A DNA stretch of 64,000 nucleotides, from the NCBI GenBank assembly GCA_965248265.1, contig CBDFJF010000002.1, positions 704,001 to 768,000 of the forward strand. The letters run 5' to 3'. The DNA comes from Candidatus Latescibacterota bacterium (GTDB lineage Bacteria > Latescibacterota > UBA2968 > UBA8231). The notes beneath the pieces are model-generated. The model searched no databases and was not told the origin of the DNA. It saw only the letters and a list, made by a program, of their open reading frames with translations. Made by a program: the position numbers and the translations under genes. Below are positions 9,617-15,087 of this stretch, one piece after another; within the stretch, counting starts at the first letter, position 1; each line of letters starts with the position of its first letter.

Positions 9617-11851
9617 ATGGCAAAATCGCTTGTAGTAGTCGAGTCGCCGGCCAAGGCGACGACGATCAACAAGATTCTCGGCAAGGATTTTCTCGTCAAA
9701 TCCTGCATGGGACACGTGCGGGATCTGCCGCCCAAGGAATTAGGGGTGGACGTAGAGAACGACTTCCAGCCACGGTACGTGACCATCCGCGGCAAGGGTA
9801 AGATTCTCTCCGAGTTGAAGAAGGCTGCCCAGAGTGCGGATACCGTGTACCTGGCCACTGACCCCGATCGCGAAGGGGAGGCGATCGCCTGGCATGTTGC
9901 TCACGCGATTGCCAAGAAAGATCACACGATCAACCGGATTTTGTTCAATGAGATCACCCCGAGGGCGGTGCGCGAATCAATCACCAAACCTCTCGAACTA
10001 GACCTGGCCAAGGTCAACGCGCAACAGGCGCGGCGCGTCCTGGACCGGCTCGTCGGTTACGAAATCAGTCCGCTGCTGTGGAAGGTCATCCATGCCGGTC
10101 TGTCCGCAGGGCGAGTGCAATCGGTTGCACTGAGGCTGATCTGCGAGCGAGATGGGGAAATCAACGCTTTCGAGCCGGTGGAGTACTGGTCCATCGACGC
10201 CCTGGTGAAGCAGGCGAAGCAAACGGACGAAGCCTTCAAGGCCCATGTCATCCAGTTCGAGGGAGAGAAGATCTCCATCGACAACGAAGACACTGCCAAC
10301 ACGATTACAGCCGCGCTGAGGGTGGCCGAGTTCAAAGTCAAGGACGTCAACAAACGCGAGCAGCAACGCCGTCCGTCACCGCCGTTCATCACCAGCACCC
10401 TACAGCAGGACGCTGCCCGTCGCTTGAGGTTTTCGGTCAAGCGCACGATGGCCGTTGCCCAGCAGCTGTACGAGGGGATTGAGGTCTTGGGCGAGGTCCG
10501 AGGTCTGATAACCTACATGCGTACTGATTCGGTGCGTGTGGCCGACGAAGCCGTGGTTTCGGTGCGGCAAGAGATCGAGAGGATGTTCGGCTCCGAGTAC
10601 GTGCCTGACAAACCCAATCAATACAAAACCAAGCGCAGTGCGCAGGATGCGCATGAGGCCATACGGCCCACGGCCGTCGAACTGCACCCCGAGAAGATCA
10701 AGGACGCGTTGACTGCGGATCAGGCGAAGCTCTACGAGCTGGTGTGGAAGCGTTTCGTGGCCTCGCAGATGAAGCCACACGTGCTCAACGTGACCCGGGT
10801 CGATATTGAGGCCGACGCCTACACCCTGAGGGCAACCGGGTCCTCGACCAAGTTTCCGGGTTTTTCACGTCTGTACACCGAGAGCAAGGAAGAAGAGGAC
10901 GAGGACGAGGCGGGCACTGTCCCGGCGGAGATCGCCGCCGGCGAGGCGCTCGCGCTGAATGATCTGTTTCCCGAACAGCACTTCACCAAACCGCCGCCGC
11001 GGTACTCGGAGGCCTCACTGGTGAAGGAGCTGGAAGCCAAGGGCATCGGCCGTCCGAGCACCTACGCCCAGATTATCAGCACCTTGCAGGATCGCGAGTA
11101 CGTGGACAGATCCAACGGCCGCAATTTCATCGGTACGGAGCGCGGTCACACCGTGAACAAGTTTCTCGTCGACACGTTTCCCAACATCTTTGATGTTCAG
11201 TTTACGGCCAAGATGGAGGACGAACTCGACCGCATCGAGGACGGCGAGGAAAACTGGGTCGAATCCGTGCGTCGGTTTTACGGCTCGTGGAAGGGATTCC
11301 TGGATGAGGCCAATGCCCGTCGCAAGGAGTTGAAGGCAGCCTTCCAGGAAGAAACCACGGTTGAGTGCGAGGAGTGCGGCCGCAACATGGTCGTCAAATG
11401 GGGGCGCAACGGACGGTTTCTAGCCTGTCCCGGATATCCCCAGTGCAAGAACACGAAACCTCTCGAAGAGGATGAAGAGGCGGCTACCACAGACGAAATC
11501 TGCGCCCAGTGCGAATCGCCCATGGTGGTCAAAACCGGCCGCTACGGTCGCTTTCTGGCCTGCAGTGCCTACCCCGAGTGCCGCAATGTCAAACCGTTCG
11601 CGCTCGGCATTGACTGTCCGGAAGAAGGCTGCGAGGGCGAACTCGTTGAGAAACAGTCCCGCAAGGGAAAGGTGTTTTACGGGTGCAACCAGTACCCGAG
11701 CTGCAAGTTCGCCAGTTGGGACAAGCCGGTGAAACAGACCTGCCCTCACTGTGAGGCGGCGTTGCTCTACGAGAAGGGTTCCAAGACCGGGACCCCCGCC
11801 CTCCACTGCAGGGTCTGCGAGACTCGCTTCGAGAACACGCAGGCAGCATAG
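9617..11851 (+). CDS. topA: DNA topoisomerase I (type IA) with C-terminal C4 zinc ribbons
   Basis: LVVVESPAKA, ATDPDREGEAIAW TOPRIM motif, SAGRVQS, LITYMRTDS (catalytic Tyr), GIGRPSTYA, repeated C..C zinc fingers. Confidence 0.98.
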   Translation: MAKSLVVVESPAKATTINKILGKDFLVKSCMGHVRDLPPKELGVDVENDFQPRYVTIRGKGKILSELKKAAQSADTVYLATDPDREGEAIAWHVAHAIAKKDHTINRILFNEITPRAVRESITKPLELDLAKVNAQQARRVLDRLVGYEISPLLWKVIHAGLSAGRVQSVALRLICERDGEINAFEPVEYWSIDALVKQAKQTDEAFKAHVIQFEGEKISIDNEDTANTITAALRVAEFKVKDVNKREQQRRPSPPFITSTLQQDAARRLRFSVKRTMAVAQQLYEGIEVLGEVRGLITYMRTDSVRVADEAVVSVRQEIERMFGSEYVPDKPNQYKTKRSAQDAHEAIRPTAVELHPEKIKDALTADQAKLYELVWKRFVASQMKPHVLNVTRVDIEADAYTLRATGSSTKFPGFSRLYTESKEEEDEDEAGTVPAEIAAGEALALNDLFPEQHFTKPPPRYSEASLVKELEAKGIGRPSTYAQIISTLQDREYVDRSNGRNFIGTERGHTVNKFLVDTFPNIFDVQFTAKMEDELDRIEDGEENWVESVRRFYGSWKGFLDEANARRKELKAAFQEETTVECEECGRNMVVKWGRNGRFLACPGYPQCKNTKPLEEDEEAATTDEICAQCESPMVVKTGRYGRFLACSAYPECRNVKPFALGIDCPEEGCEGELVEKQSRKGKVFYGCNQYPSCKFASWDKPVKQTCPHCEAALLYEKGSKTGTPALHCRVCETRFENTQAA

Positions 11852-11862
11852 TACGAGCTTCA

Positions 11863-12894
11863 GTGCGGCATCGAGCAGCTCACCCGCGTGCCAATTCAAA
11901 GACTGACTCCGCTTCGCCGGTAAGCGCCGCCTCGAGCTTGGAGAGTGGGGCCGCGTTGTTTCTGGATGCTCTGGAGGCGCAAGGCTGTGCCCCAGGCACC
12001 GCACGGGCTTATCGCACCGACCTGTCGCAATTCGCTCTTTTCCTACATCCCAGAATGTCCACCCAGCCAGCGTGGGGCCTGCGAGACGTGGGCACCGATC
12101 ATCTTCGGCAGTTCATCGAGGATCTGCGTGAACATGGCTGCAAACCGCGCACGATCGCACGCAAGGTCGCAAGCGTACGCTCGTGCTTCCGGTTTCTGTG
12201 CGCCGAGGGGGTACTCGAGAGTAATCCCGCCATCGCCGTCAATGTTGCTGCGGTTGCCAGGGGATCCGAATCGCTACAGCGGGATGGCCTGGAACATGCC
12301 TTTGGGGAGCGAGCCGAAGGCCCGGATTTTCGCAGCGCCAGGGACAGAGCCATTCTCGAGATTCTGTACGGCTGCGGCTTGAGACTCAGTGAACTTGTCG
12401 GTCTGAACCTGTCTTCGTTGAGTATGGAAGAGGGACACTTGCGGTTGCAGGAACGTGACAACGAGCGCAGCGTGCCGATGGGATCCAGGGCTTCGGCTGC
12501 CATCGCCTCCTACCTGATCTGCAGAGCCGACCAACTGGTCGATCGGGACATCACCCAGATCGATGCGGGAGCGCTATTCGTTAACGAACGCGGCCTGCGT
12601 CTGCACCGCCGCACTGTCCAACGCATCGTAGCCCGCGGCCTGCCGCGCGCTGATGCTGGTGGATTGGCGACCCCACAATTGTTGCGCAACTCTTTCGCTA
12701 CGCATCTTCTCGACGGCGGAGCTCCTGTCGGTAGCGTTCAGGTGATGCTGGGTCAGACCTCACTGCCTGTCGCCGTACGCGAGCCGTCCTCGCTGGAGCA
12801 GCTGCGGGCCATGTACAACCGGGCGCACCCGCGTGCCTACCGTGAGGACGATGGCTTAACTATCGAGGTAGCGGGAGGAGGCACTGGGAAATGA
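11863..12894 (+). CDS. XerC-like tyrosine recombinase homologue, apparently catalytically degenerate
   Basis: RDRAILEILYGCGLRLSEL, LR.SFATHLL, AHPRA C-terminus and topA-xerC-hslVU synteny. However HxxR is QLLR, LGH is LGQ, and the GKG lysine and TTQIY tyrosine are absent. Start uncertain. Confidence 0.85.
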   Translation: MRHRAAHPRANSKTDSASPVSAASSLESGAALFLDALEAQGCAPGTARAYRTDLSQFALFLHPRMSTQPAWGLRDVGTDHLRQFIEDLREHGCKPRTIARKVASVRSCFRFLCAEGVLESNPAIAVNVAAVARGSESLQRDGLEHAFGERAEGPDFRSARDRAILEILYGCGLRLSELVGLNLSSLSMEEGHLRLQERDNERSVPMGSRASAAIASYLICRADQLVDRDITQIDAGALFVNERGLRLHRRTVQRIVARGLPRADAGGLATPQLLRNSFATHLLDGGAPVGSVQVMLGQTSLPVAVREPSSLEQLRAMYNRAHPRAYREDDGLTIEVAGGGTGK

Positions 12895-13424
12895 AGAAGA
12901 CGAGGGCGACGACGATTCTGGGTGTGCGCCACAAGGGCAAGGTGGTGATGGGAGGTGATGGGCAGATCACCTTCGGTGAGATGGTGCTCAAACACAGGAC
13001 ATCGAAGATCCGCAAGCTCTACAACGATTCCATCCTGGTGGGCTTTGCCGGCGGCACGTCGGATGCTCTGGCGCTGTTGGATCACTTCGAGTCCCGCTTG
13101 GAGGAACACAACGGACAGCTGGAGCGGGCCGCTCACGAGCTGGCGAGAGACTGGCGTACCGATCGCATGCTGCGACGTCTGGAAGCCATGATCGTCGCCA
13201 TGGACGCACAGCGCTCGCTGCTGATCTCGGGCGAGGGGGATCTGTTGACGCCTGATGATGACGTCATCAGTATCGGTTCAGGCTCGGCATACGCCACGGC
13301 CGCCGCCCGGGCTTACGTCGATGCTTCCAAACTCGGCGCCGCTCAGATCGTCAAACGCTCTCTGTTGATTGCCGCCGACATGTGCATCTATACCAATACA
13401 GACATCCAAATCCTCGAACTATAA
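12891..13424 (+). CDS. hslV: ATP-dependent protease subunit HslV
   Basis: ATTILGV N-terminal Thr nucleophile, GDGQIT.G, GFAG, WRTDR.LRRLEA, IGSG, CIYTN. Confidence 0.97.
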   Translation: MKKTRATTILGVRHKGKVVMGGDGQITFGEMVLKHRTSKIRKLYNDSILVGFAGGTSDALALLDHFESRLEEHNGQLERAAHELARDWRTDRMLRRLEAMIVAMDAQRSLLISGEGDLLTPDDDVISIGSGSAYATAAARAYVDASKLGAAQIVKRSLLIAADMCIYTNTDIQILEL

Positions 13425-13426
13425 CT

Positions 13427-14929
13427 ATGCAACAGTTGACACCGGCCGAGATCGTGCAGGAGCTGGATCGACACATCGTCGGCCAGAGCAGGGCTAAACG
13501 CTCGGTCGCAATCGCTCTGCGTAACCGCTGGCGCCGGCAGCAGGTAGCCGACACGCTGCGGGAGGAGATTATCCCCAACAACATAATCATGATCGGCCCT
13601 ACCGGGGTGGGCAAGACGGAGATAGCTCGCCGGCTCGCCGATCTGGCCCACGCGCCTTTCCTCAAGGTCGAGGCCTCGAAGTTTACGGAAGTGGGCTACG
13701 TAGGGCGTGACGTCGAGTCGATCATTCGCGATCTGACCGACCTGGCCATCAACATGGTCAAGCAGGAACACGCCAAAGCGGTAGAGGAAAGGGCGCAGGC
13801 GCAGGTTCAGGAGCGGATTGTGCAGCTGTTGCTGGCAACCCGTCAGTCCCCGCAAGAGCCCGCTGACGGCGAGTCCAGGCCTGTCGCAGAGAGCGAGCCT
13901 CCGGCGTCGGAGGCTCTGGAGCCGGCACTCGAGACCACCGAACCGGTGTTGCGGCCGATTTCATCGGAGGCGATACAGGAGGCCATGAGAATCTCCGTCG
14001 ACGTGGAGTTGCCGGACGCTGAGCAAACCGGGGGCAGCGCCGAGGATGATCAGGAGATGGAGCGACTGCGGCAACAGCTGGTGGAGGGTGAATTGGAGGA
14101 AGAGCACGTCGAGCTGGAGCTGCCCAAGGAACGATCGCCCATCATCGAGGTATTCTCGCCGTTGACGAACATCGAAGAGATGAGCATCAACATCCAGGAA
14201 GTCGTGGCGGGAATGGCACAGCAGACAACCCAACCGAAGAAGCTGTCTGTCAGCGAAGCCCGCGATATTCTGCTGCAGGAGGAGACGCAGAGGCTCATCG
14301 ATCACGACCGCGCCGTGGCCGAAGCGATCGACCGCGTTGAGGAATCGGGGATCGTATTTCTGGACGAGATCGACAAGGTTGCCACCTCTCAGGCCAAGGC
14401 CGGTCCGGACATATCTCGCGAGGGGGTACAGCGCGATCTCCTGCCCATCATCGAGGGTTCAACGGTGACGACGAAGTACGGCATCGTCCACACTCATCAC
14501 ATCCTTTTCATCGCCGCGGGCGCCTTCCACATCTCCAAACCCGCTGACTTGATTCCGGAGTTGCAGGGCCGGTTTCCCATACGGGTCGAGCTCGACAGTC
14601 TTGGGGCCTCGGAGTTCGTTGAGATTCTGACGCGCCCCAAGAGCGCGTTGATCAAGCAGTACACGGCCATGCTGGCCAGCGAGGAGGTAGAGCTCTCCTT
14701 CACGCCAGAGGCCATCCGCGAGTGTGCCCGCATCGCCGACGAGGTCAATCAGAGTTCGGAGAATATTGGCGCGCGTAGGCTCCACACCGTCATGTCGACG
14801 CTTCTCGACGAAGTACTGTTCGATGCGCCTGGCCTGGAAGAGAAAAAGGTCCGGATTACCAAGCAGTACGTGCGGGACAAGATTCAGGGGATAATCGAAG
14901 ACGAGGATTTGAGTCGGTACGTGTTGTGA
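13427..14929 (+). CDS. hslU: ATP-dependent protease ATPase subunit HslU
   Basis: GPTGVGKTEIARRLA Walker A, KFTEVGYVGRDV, FLDEIDK, ELQGRFPIRV, NIGARRL, DLSRYVL. ATG at 13427 follows the hslV stop. Confidence 0.97.
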   Translation: MQQLTPAEIVQELDRHIVGQSRAKRSVAIALRNRWRRQQVADTLREEIIPNNIIMIGPTGVGKTEIARRLADLAHAPFLKVEASKFTEVGYVGRDVESIIRDLTDLAINMVKQEHAKAVEERAQAQVQERIVQLLLATRQSPQEPADGESRPVAESEPPASEALEPALETTEPVLRPISSEAIQEAMRISVDVELPDAEQTGGSAEDDQEMERLRQQLVEGELEEEHVELELPKERSPIIEVFSPLTNIEEMSINIQEVVAGMAQQTTQPKKLSVSEARDILLQEETQRLIDHDRAVAEAIDRVEESGIVFLDEIDKVATSQAKAGPDISREGVQRDLLPIIEGSTVTTKYGIVHTHHILFIAAGAFHISKPADLIPELQGRFPIRVELDSLGASEFVEILTRPKSALIKQYTAMLASEEVELSFTPEAIRECARIADEVNQSSENIGARRLHTVMSTLLDEVLFDAPGLEEKKVRITKQYVRDKIQGIIEDEDLSRYVL

Positions 14930-15087
14930 GGCTGGGCGTGATGTCTGGAGAACGGGGGCCACTGATTGATGGGGGCACCAGTCGGTGAGTGCTTTCTGAC
15001 AATACAGGGCGCCAACTGACGGGGGCAGGCTACCGGTGGTGAGATCGTCTGTTGTCTTCCGACGTGCTATGCACGCGCAAGACAGCT

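Follow-up and report, generated by a model that had tools for sequence, protein, structure and literature searches.

The window analyzed here, a 64,000 nt stretch of a Candidatus Latescibacterota genome (contig CBDFJF010000002.1, positions 704,001 to 768,000 of the forward strand), carries a tight plus-strand cluster of topA, which encodes DNA topoisomerase I, a xerC homolog, hslV and hslU in its list of open reading frames (ORFs). The product of the xerC homolog, designated XerC*, is a catalytically degenerate ortholog of the tyrosine recombinase XerC and is the subject of this report. XerC and XerD are regarded as housekeeping enzymes, near-universal and inherited strictly vertically, and annotation pipelines label any such homolog a recombinase. 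The genome (7.32 Mb in two contigs, C1 and C2; 92% complete with 4.4% contamination; labeled G000) contains 18 matches to the Pfam family PF00589, and all of its Xer genes and sites discussed below are located on contig C2. A sequence-only reading of the window had described the gene as a XerC homolog with an intact ORF and a kept operon position, overlapping hslV at an ATGA. The ORF, its stop codon shared with the hslV start, and the synteny with related genomes are all in line with this description (coordinates in Table 1).

XerC* matches PF00589 with 77.9 bits (cut-off 27.1) and the SAM-like core-binding family PF02899 with 46.9 bits (cut-off 22.3), both above threshold, and the PF00589 match stops at profile position 159 of 172, short of the tyrosine region. 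The best curated families are XerC followed by XerD, of which neither equivalog cut-off is reached: the score is 193.8 bits on the NCBIfam XerC model TIGR02224 (cut-off 335.15, about 140 bits short) and 188.2 bits on the XerD model TIGR02225 (cut-off 329.6). Among solved structures, E. coli XerD (1a0p; E 2e-28) is the best match. We compared 29 loci fetched from 40 related genomes. The xerC ortholog follows topA in 23 of the 29 loci, and in 8 of these hslVU comes after it. The order topA-xerC*-hslV-hslU is also present in two metagenome loci of the XerC* clade, L103 and L104. Judged by this synteny and by the gene tree described below, XerC* is a vertically inherited XerC ortholog.

The catalytic residues were mapped from alignments of XerC* with E. 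coli XerD (1a0p) and with the Xer-like portion of PDB entry 9i5v. XerC* holds only R174 and R275 of the R-K-H-R-H-Y set, as the sequence-only reading had noticed, and the other four of the six residues are lost. XerC* has no tyrosine between residues 292 and 317, and it keeps the structural motifs RDRAILEILYG, SFATHLL and YNRAHPRA, also in agreement with that reading. Of 61 columns with at least 90% conservation across 80 canonical homologs, XerC* retains 2 of the 7 catalytic-type columns versus 44 of the 54 others (Fisher p = 0.008), and 8 of the 10 other changed columns flank catalytic positions. Thus, the erosion of XerC* is centered on the active-site pocket, which substantiates the earlier impression that the loss was focused on catalytic positions. 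The residue at the Lys position is variable (R/H/K/G/A) within the closest XerC* clade. Y318, the only tyrosine near the former nucleophile, is conserved to the same degree in canonical XerC and does not qualify as an alternative nucleophile. According to the accessible text of a saturating mutagenesis study of Cre, activity above 5% of the wild type strictly requires only the tyrosine and the lysine, and 133 of 134 active-site variants still bind loxP (PMC2943603). Because XerC* has neither of these two residues, it should be catalytically dead; by the same comparison its DNA binding need not be lost and is plausible. With no nucleophilic tyrosine, no general-acid lysine and neither histidine, XerC* is predicted to be a pseudo-enzyme unable to cleave DNA.

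The degenerate sequence is not an assembly artifact. A contig from the probable source-sample run is identical to window positions 11800-13000 (0 differences), and a 236-base contig from a separate marine metagenome study spans 12474-12709, including the PQLLRN codons, with 3 differences, 2 of which fall on third codon positions. The Q...R...Q pattern recurs in each of the 10 closest protein clusters (63-92% identity), none of which has the Lys or the Tyr. The matching contigs and the loss in all of these homologs rule out an assembly error or recent decay, and no canonical form was found among the close relatives, including L103 and L104. Of the 120 best homologs, 36 have neither histidine, and 80 show the canonical residues at the four R/H/R/H columns. 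When the 150 best 50%-identity representatives, drawn from 1.8 billion proteins, were classified, 14 lacked at least three of the six residues, one lacked one or two, and 135 were canonical. The source names on the homologs are Gemmatimonadota or Latescibacterota metagenome-assembled genomes, and seawater metagenomes contain near-identical DNA. The probable source sample also holds a second relative of the gene, about 77% identical, on a 1601-base contig (aligned to 11996-12836); two related lineages therefore co-occur there. A search for RNA records over window positions 11000-15000 turned up none.

Within the family to which this genome belongs, 21 XerC loci comprise 7 canonical, 10 dead and 4 partly degenerate forms, and in three sister families all 8 loci are canonical. 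In the XerC gene tree, all 13 dead sequences form one clade (Shimodaira-Hasegawa approximate likelihood-ratio test, SH-aLRT, 95), and the dead and canonical forms of the family together form one clade apart from the sister families (SH-aLRT 100).

To estimate the selection on the dead form, the ratio of nonsynonymous to synonymous substitution rates (dN/dS) was calculated with a Nei-Gojobori script. XerC* is 84% identical in amino acid sequence to its ortholog at L103 and about 70% identical to that at L104. The dN/dS is 0.19 between the window and L103 (dS 0.48), 0.14 between the window and L104 (dS 1.4, near saturation) and 0.21 between L103 and L104 (dS 1.0). The same three pairs give 0.08-0.135 for hslU and 0.02-0.07 for hslV. 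Congeneric pairs of dead orthologs in the relatives range from 0.13 to 0.34, and canonical pairs from 0.10 to 0.25. No stop or frameshift is present in any of the 13 dead loci. None of the three XerC* values is near 1, and together with the loss in relatives and the lack of an alternative Tyr they speak for the proposal of the sequence-only reading that the protein is selected for a non-catalytic role.

Positions kept in at least 9 of the 11 dead-clade sequences make up 61% of the core-binding domain, 64% of the catalytic domain and 65% of the C-terminal helix. The proportion falls to 30% for the former Tyr loop and 27% for the linker, and it is 0% for the tails. A run of 16 consecutive residues in the core-binding domain, AYRTDLSQFALFLHPR, is invariant in all 11 sequences. 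The C-terminal helix is the partner-docking element of Xer and Cre-type recombinases; in a 58-sequence alignment (A1), its H322 and P323 never vary, and conservation is at least 90% at Y318, A321 and R324. The AlphaFold2 model of XerC* has a mean predicted local distance difference test score (pLDDT) of 86.9, with dips only in the tails and in residues 301-310 around the former Tyr, a poorly ordered block of pLDDT 54. A Foldseek search with the model returned XerD as the best match (E 3.9e-11), then XerA and lambda Int, as well as Cre and XerH, all with probability 1.00. In the model, XerC* retains the two-domain recombinase fold except for the former Tyr segment. The protein is under purifying selection, probably as a folded two-domain DNA clamp, for which DNA binding is predicted.

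The XerD ortholog of this genome, XerD*, is also atypical. It scores 267.6 bits on the XerD model and does not reach the cut-off of 329.6. Thr (GITASE) takes the place of Arg-I and Gln that of His-I, and the stretch between the Tyr and the terminal HHPQA is shortened by about 12 residues. The Thr at Arg-I is found in all 13 closest clusters (58-100% identity), 2 of which also lack His-II and Tyr. Elsewhere in the family, XerD still has Arg-I, yet the catalytic Lys is often replaced by Arg or another residue; most orthologs in the family retain Arg-I, Arg-II, His-II and Tyr, and the XerDs of the sister families are canonical. We rejected a frameshift or assembly error in XerD*, because the ORF ends with HHPQA and a stop that overlaps the next ATG, no C-terminal remnant is present in other frames, and the close clusters have the same form. 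We also rejected a trans-complemented site with Arg from XerC* and Lys, His and Tyr from XerD*: Arg-I is located in the core of the catalytic domain and presumably cannot be donated. FtsK with a gamma domain is encoded in this genome.

The sequence-only reading had proposed looking for an intact xerC or xerD and for dif. A dif site was found, XerD* turned out to be degenerate, and the intact enzyme that came to light instead was a third recombinase, designated XerX. GC skew indicates one circular chromosome with the origin near C1:2.94 Mb and the terminus at C2:~3,484,000, and the XerX gene coincides exactly with the cumulative GC-skew maximum. XerX is also located at the local cumulative-skew maximum in two complete genomes of different genera (G008 and G061), that is, in 3 of 3 genomes tested. 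XerX is distant from XerC and XerD (about 119 bits on the XerC model; best PDB sequence match E 2e-13). Single-copy orthologs (54-74% identity) are present in 59 of 75 other genomes of the family, and none was found in 16 genomes of the three sister families. The six catalytic residues are invariant in 120 of 120 XerX homologs.

The 7.3 Mb genome has a single exact ACATAA-N6-TTATG core. This core lies 361 bp upstream of XerX in a dif site composed of the XerC-type arm GTGTCGCATAA and the XerD-type arm TTATGTACA. Two more dif-like sites lie between XerX and leuS. The XerC-arm 10-mer TGTCGCATAA has exactly two occurrences in the genome, in two dif-like sites flanking XerX. These flanking sites are inverted, with the XerD-type arms towards the gene and different spacers, and the arrangement recurs in relatives (L074-L091): of 19 loci, 16 have a dif-like site after XerX and 7 have an inverted copy before it. 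In addition, a perfect 11-6-11 palindrome, ACTAACGATAA-N6-TTATCGTTAGT, is located about 260 bp upstream of XerX, and a pattern search detected the same palindrome type upstream of XerX in 13 of the 19 loci. Dif half-sites were examined for an XDS-like enrichment up to 200 kb from the terminus, and nothing was found beyond the dif-like sites themselves. Given its intact active site and its position at the terminus, XerX is the protein that most likely does the cutting.

An imperfect palindrome of 28 bp, AGTGAGGATAA-N6-TTATCGTTACT, which is related to the palindrome upstream of XerX, was also observed in at least 20 copies, at C2:1134276-1156261 and about 15 other places in this genome. Each copy is followed by a conserved flank of about 40 nt, and the orientation of the half-sites tracks the replichore. 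Seven of the copies form a tandem array with 1.3-5.6 kb spacing and varied genes between them, and an IS91-like transposase ORF, recognized by eye, lies at one end of the array. These repeats may be cassette-like modules or the ends of a repeated mobile element.

In all three genomes without XerX that were examined (G017, G015 and G043), a different, Cre-like PF00589 recombinase adjoins dif, and its R, K, H-x-x-R, W and Y are present. The notion that such genomes rely on XerD and dead XerC alone was therefore rejected for these three. Genus g16 has dead XerC and no XerX; its best dif candidate comes close to a palindrome and carries two XerD-type arms. In 5 sister-family genomes, no recombinase gene was found within 1.5 kb of the best dif-like core, these cores being only putative dif sites.

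Two further observations concern other recombinase-like genes. At least four near-identical integrase genes of about 280-310 aa are present in this genome (L005, L007, L008 and L010), which indicates a multi-copy mobile element. Chain 14 of PDB 9i5v is a 400-aa Porphyromonas gingivalis 'RaiA', of which 34 residues are modeled on the ribosome; about 280 residues align with Xer recombinases with the catalytic Tyr kept, and the homologs P0031 (400 aa) and P0096 (415 aa) are of similar length. The P. gingivalis protein apparently combines a Xer-like protein with a RaiA domain in one fusion. The word 'recombinase' has no occurrence in the accessible text of the report on 9i5v (PMC12123416).

Table 1. 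Coordinates of XerC*, its residues and segments, neighboring genes and other recombinases and sites (positions without a contig or locus label are those of the window)
Feature	Position	Strand	Remarks
XerC* ORF	11863..12894	+	343 aa, GTG start; catalytically degenerate XerC ortholog
Core-binding (N-terminal, SAM-like) domain, residues ~31-125	11953..12237	+	PF02899 covers residues 32-116
Arg-I, R174 (AGA, in GLRLSE)	12382..12384	+	Kept
Beta2-beta3 hairpin segment, residues 192-206, HLRLQERDNERSVPM	12436..12480	+	Zero lysines; catalytic Lys gone
His-I to Gln, Q272 (CAA, in PQLLRN)	12676..12678	+	By alignment; Q in 10/10 closest homologs
Arg-II, R275 (CGC)	12685..12687	+	Kept; invariant in the 58-sequence alignment A1
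His-II to Gln, Q298 (CAG, in LGQ)	12754..12756	+	By alignment; Q in 10/10 closest homologs
R306-E307 at the place of the nucleophile Tyr (PVAVREPS)	12778..12783	+	Two alignments differ: Tyr opposite R306 or E307
C-terminal helix, residues 311-327, LEQLRAMYNRAHPRAY	12793..12843	+	Conserved in A1 and in the dead clade
topA (DNA topoisomerase I)	9617..11851	+	ORF; ends 11 nt 5′ of XerC*
hslV	12891..13424	+	ORF; ATG overlaps the XerC* TGA stop as ATGA at 12891-12894
hslU	13382..14929	+	ORF; same order in relatives' loci
XerD*	G000 C2:769736-770650; locus L002:1480-2397		Minus strand; 54 kb from XerC*, 1.7 kb past the window end
XerX, tyrosine recombinase gene	C2:3483353-3484390; loci L006/L073		345 aa; minus strand, between leuS and mutL
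Sites bracketing XerX	G000 C2:3483153-3483283 and C2:3484647-3484772		Two dif-like sites at C2:3483153-3483283; palindrome at C2:3484647-3484674; dif at C2:3484751-3484772
Cre-like dif-adjacent recombinase	Loci L166 (G015), L168 (G043), L173 (G017)		~309-319 aa; PF00589 50-55 bits

The account that we favor, at somewhat better than an even chance, is that XerC* is a selected, non-catalytic DNA-binding Xer subunit whose catalytic job was probably made dispensable by a dif-linked single recombinase. XerC* would bind DNA as a recombinase subunit held permanently in the inactive conformation, its two retained Arg would hold the phosphate, and its conserved C-terminal helix would dock onto a partner. 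XerC* would probably act together with the equally atypical XerD*. The family would have gained an intact, dif-linked single recombinase for chromosome-dimer resolution, either XerX or the other type in genomes devoid of XerX. This takeover would have made the catalysis of XerC dispensable and, in this lineage, partly that of XerD as well, lineage by lineage, and the proteins would be kept for DNA clamping, bending, synapsis and partner contact. As for where XerC* acts, the XerC-type half-sites of the dif-like sites at the terminus are given a little under an even chance. An inactive subunit at the terminus is suggested by the invariance of Arg-II, the mostly kept Arg-I and the invariant H322 and P323 of the docking helix, by the catalytic losses in XerC and XerD of the same clade, and by the identical XerC-type arm in two dif-like sites.

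Several observations weigh against this account. First, four genomes of the family hold XerX together with canonical XerC, and thus XerX is at most permissive for the loss of XerC catalysis and not sufficient. Second, the role of XerX in dimer resolution is deduced from its position, the neighboring sites and its conservation. Third, Arg-I is not invariant in the dead clade, being Q in P0005 and P0008 and K in P0010 among the closest clusters, which weakens the picture of a phosphate-holding subunit. Fourth, the two XerD-type arms of the g16 dif candidate suggest that XerC* need not occupy dif there. Fifth, in both genomes of genus g10 (86-90% complete), XerC was found neither beside topA nor as a XerC-level match elsewhere, which indicates that the protein is dispensable in some relatives. 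Sixth, dS is saturated in some of the pairs used for dN/dS. Finally, the dead lineages are dispersed in a tree of the adjacent topA fragment, where their monophyly is rejected by the approximately unbiased (AU) test (p = 1e-8; the grouping predates the topA tree, and the test was run after the tree was seen). When one dead sequence was forced to its topA neighbors in the XerC tree, the result was borderline (p = 0.041). The conflict between the trees possibly reflects several independent losses combined with long-branch attraction, or one old dead allele that has spread. Under either history, the dead form has been retained while at least 10 genera diverged.

The most serious rival, which we consider doubtful though possible, is that XerC* has been repurposed as a sequence-specific DNA-binding regulator or nucleoid protein away from dif, similar to the phage repressor MrpR or to an organizer of the kind formed by XerD at XDS sites; a dif-independent DNA-binding or regulatory role in general is held to be equally doubtful. 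The near-palindromic dif candidate of g16, the loss of XerC in g10 and the variation of Arg-I are what make this rival serious: the dead XerC of g16 is retained though the dif candidate there has two XerD-type arms. Moreover, the gene is fixed in the topA/hslVU operon and not near dif. There are precedents in the accessible texts, since MrpR is a DNA-binding repressor with the recombinase fold and most catalytic residues gone (PMC10516654), and XerD unloads SMC at XDS sites (as cited in PMC12322038 and PMC11840125). However, we found no candidate operator or regulon in this analysis, the invariance of Arg-II and of the docking C-terminal helix is unexpected for a stand-alone repressor, and the XerC-type dif arm is maintained, being identical at two sites of this genome.

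A bolder version of the non-catalytic subunit account, which we rate as unlikely, is a three-protein Xer system. XerC and XerD would both be inert, co-evolving binders of the dif arms with a DNA-marking, architectural or FtsK/SMC-coupling function, and XerX, encoded between inverted dif-like sites at the terminus, would do all of the strand exchange. If true, such a system would split site recognition and control from the chemistry, an arrangement undescribed for chromosome dimer resolution.

The sequence-only reading had suggested that XerC* is a DNA-binding partner in a system where XerD alone cuts. In such a system, the Holliday junction would be resolved by replication or RuvABC. Integration of the CTX phage is a one-strand-pair Xer reaction completed by replication, according to the accessible text of PMC3442271, and most XerDs of the family do keep Arg-I, Arg-II, His-II and Tyr. 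Nevertheless, this idea is improbable and sits badly with this genome: XerD* has Thr at Arg-I, as do all of its 13 closest clusters, Gln at His-I and the deletion after the Tyr. The accessible text of the Cre study describes a single tolerated substitution at this Arg, with modest activity (PMC2943603). Many XerDs of the family have Arg or another residue for the catalytic Lys, an intact recombinase gene is present at dif in every family genome examined for it, and the canonical XerX encoded at the terminus beside dif is a better candidate for the chemistry.

It is very improbable that XerC* is a functionless relic heading for loss, its frame held open by chance or through the essential operon. 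The absence of XerC in g10 and its faster evolution than the neighboring genes, with long branches of the dead forms and dN/dS above that of hslV, would fit such a relic. Against it stand the dN/dS of 0.14-0.21 with a dS of 0.48 in the closest pair, the 13 dead loci free of stops and frameshifts, the equal conservation of both domains, the fixation of Q272 and Q298, and the persistence of the dead form across at least 10 genera. Hardly any credence is given to the last alternative, a still active recombinase that uses unconventional residues such as another nucleophile: both Arg that bind the scissile phosphate are kept, but the Lys and the two His have gone together, the amino acids found in place of Lys and Tyr differ within the clade, unlike new catalytic residues, Y318 is no more conserved than in canonical XerC, and conservation and order are lowest in the former Tyr segment.

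A family-level lineage of uncultured bacteria retains XerC as a pseudo-enzyme under purifying selection. The dead forms would be natural separation-of-function variants for the non-catalytic roles of Xer proteins, namely DNA bending, synapsis, partner activation and terminus organization. XerX would represent a previously unnamed family of dif-linked recombinases, likely active enzymes, and the family as a whole a probable intermediate in the switch from a two-recombinase to a single-recombinase system. In the literature searched, which did not include most subscription journals, we found no description of a catalytically dead chromosomal XerC ortholog or of a third recombinase at dif in this lineage. 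The accessible texts of Xer/dif reviews and surveys (PMC5357621, PMC2731167 and PMC3025954) contain neither a dead XerC ortholog nor a third dif recombinase, and the word 'inactive' is absent from that of a paper on the classification of tyrosine recombinases (PMC8138268).

Compared with known systems, XerC* is similar to E. coli XerC and B. subtilis CodV in its two-domain fold, its matches to the XerC and XerD families and its AHPRA helix, and the genome shares with these systems a canonical-looking dif at the terminus with distinct XerC-type and XerD-type arms. The codV-clpQ-clpY arrangement of Firmicutes also resembles the topA-xerC-hslV-hslU neighborhood. XerC* differs from XerC and CodV by the loss of 4 of the 6 catalytic residues and a score about 140 bits under the equivalog cut-off, and the present system differs in a XerD* without Arg-I and a third recombinase encoded at dif.

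Reportedly, the role of B. subtilis XerD in SMC unloading needs no catalysis. The likeness to XerC* would lie in a Xer protein serving as a site-specific DNA-binding factor at the terminus instead of a recombinase (as cited in the accessible texts of PMC12322038 and PMC11840125). That XerD is catalytically competent, unlike XerC*, and the terminus here shows no XDS-like enrichment of half-sites.

MrpR (YopR), the master repressor of the B. subtilis prophage SPbeta, resembles XerC* in combining a recombinase fold and the loss of most catalytic residues with a non-catalytic function, as far as the accessible text goes (PMC10516654). According to the same text, MrpR is a phage protein with less than 25% identity to recombinases, and it keeps Lys and Tyr (PMC10516654). 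In contrast, XerC* is a chromosomal, syntenic XerC ortholog that is 28-50% identical to canonical Xer proteins and keeps the two Arg. Because XerC* descends from XerC, any likeness to MrpR would be convergent.

XerX, on the other hand, is comparable to the single-recombinase modules XerS/difSL, XerH/difH and archaeal XerA/dif in having its gene directly next to the presumed site at the terminus; in the accessible texts, xerS is genetically linked to difSL (PMC2731167), and single-recombinase Xer modules linked to their site have been reviewed (PMC5357621). XerC and XerD are absent from those modules, whereas both orthologs remain here in degenerate form. XerX is only distantly related to the solved Xer proteins (best PDB match as given above), and it differs from the single-recombinase modules in being flanked by dif-like sites with XerC-type and XerD-type arms together with a separate perfect palindrome.

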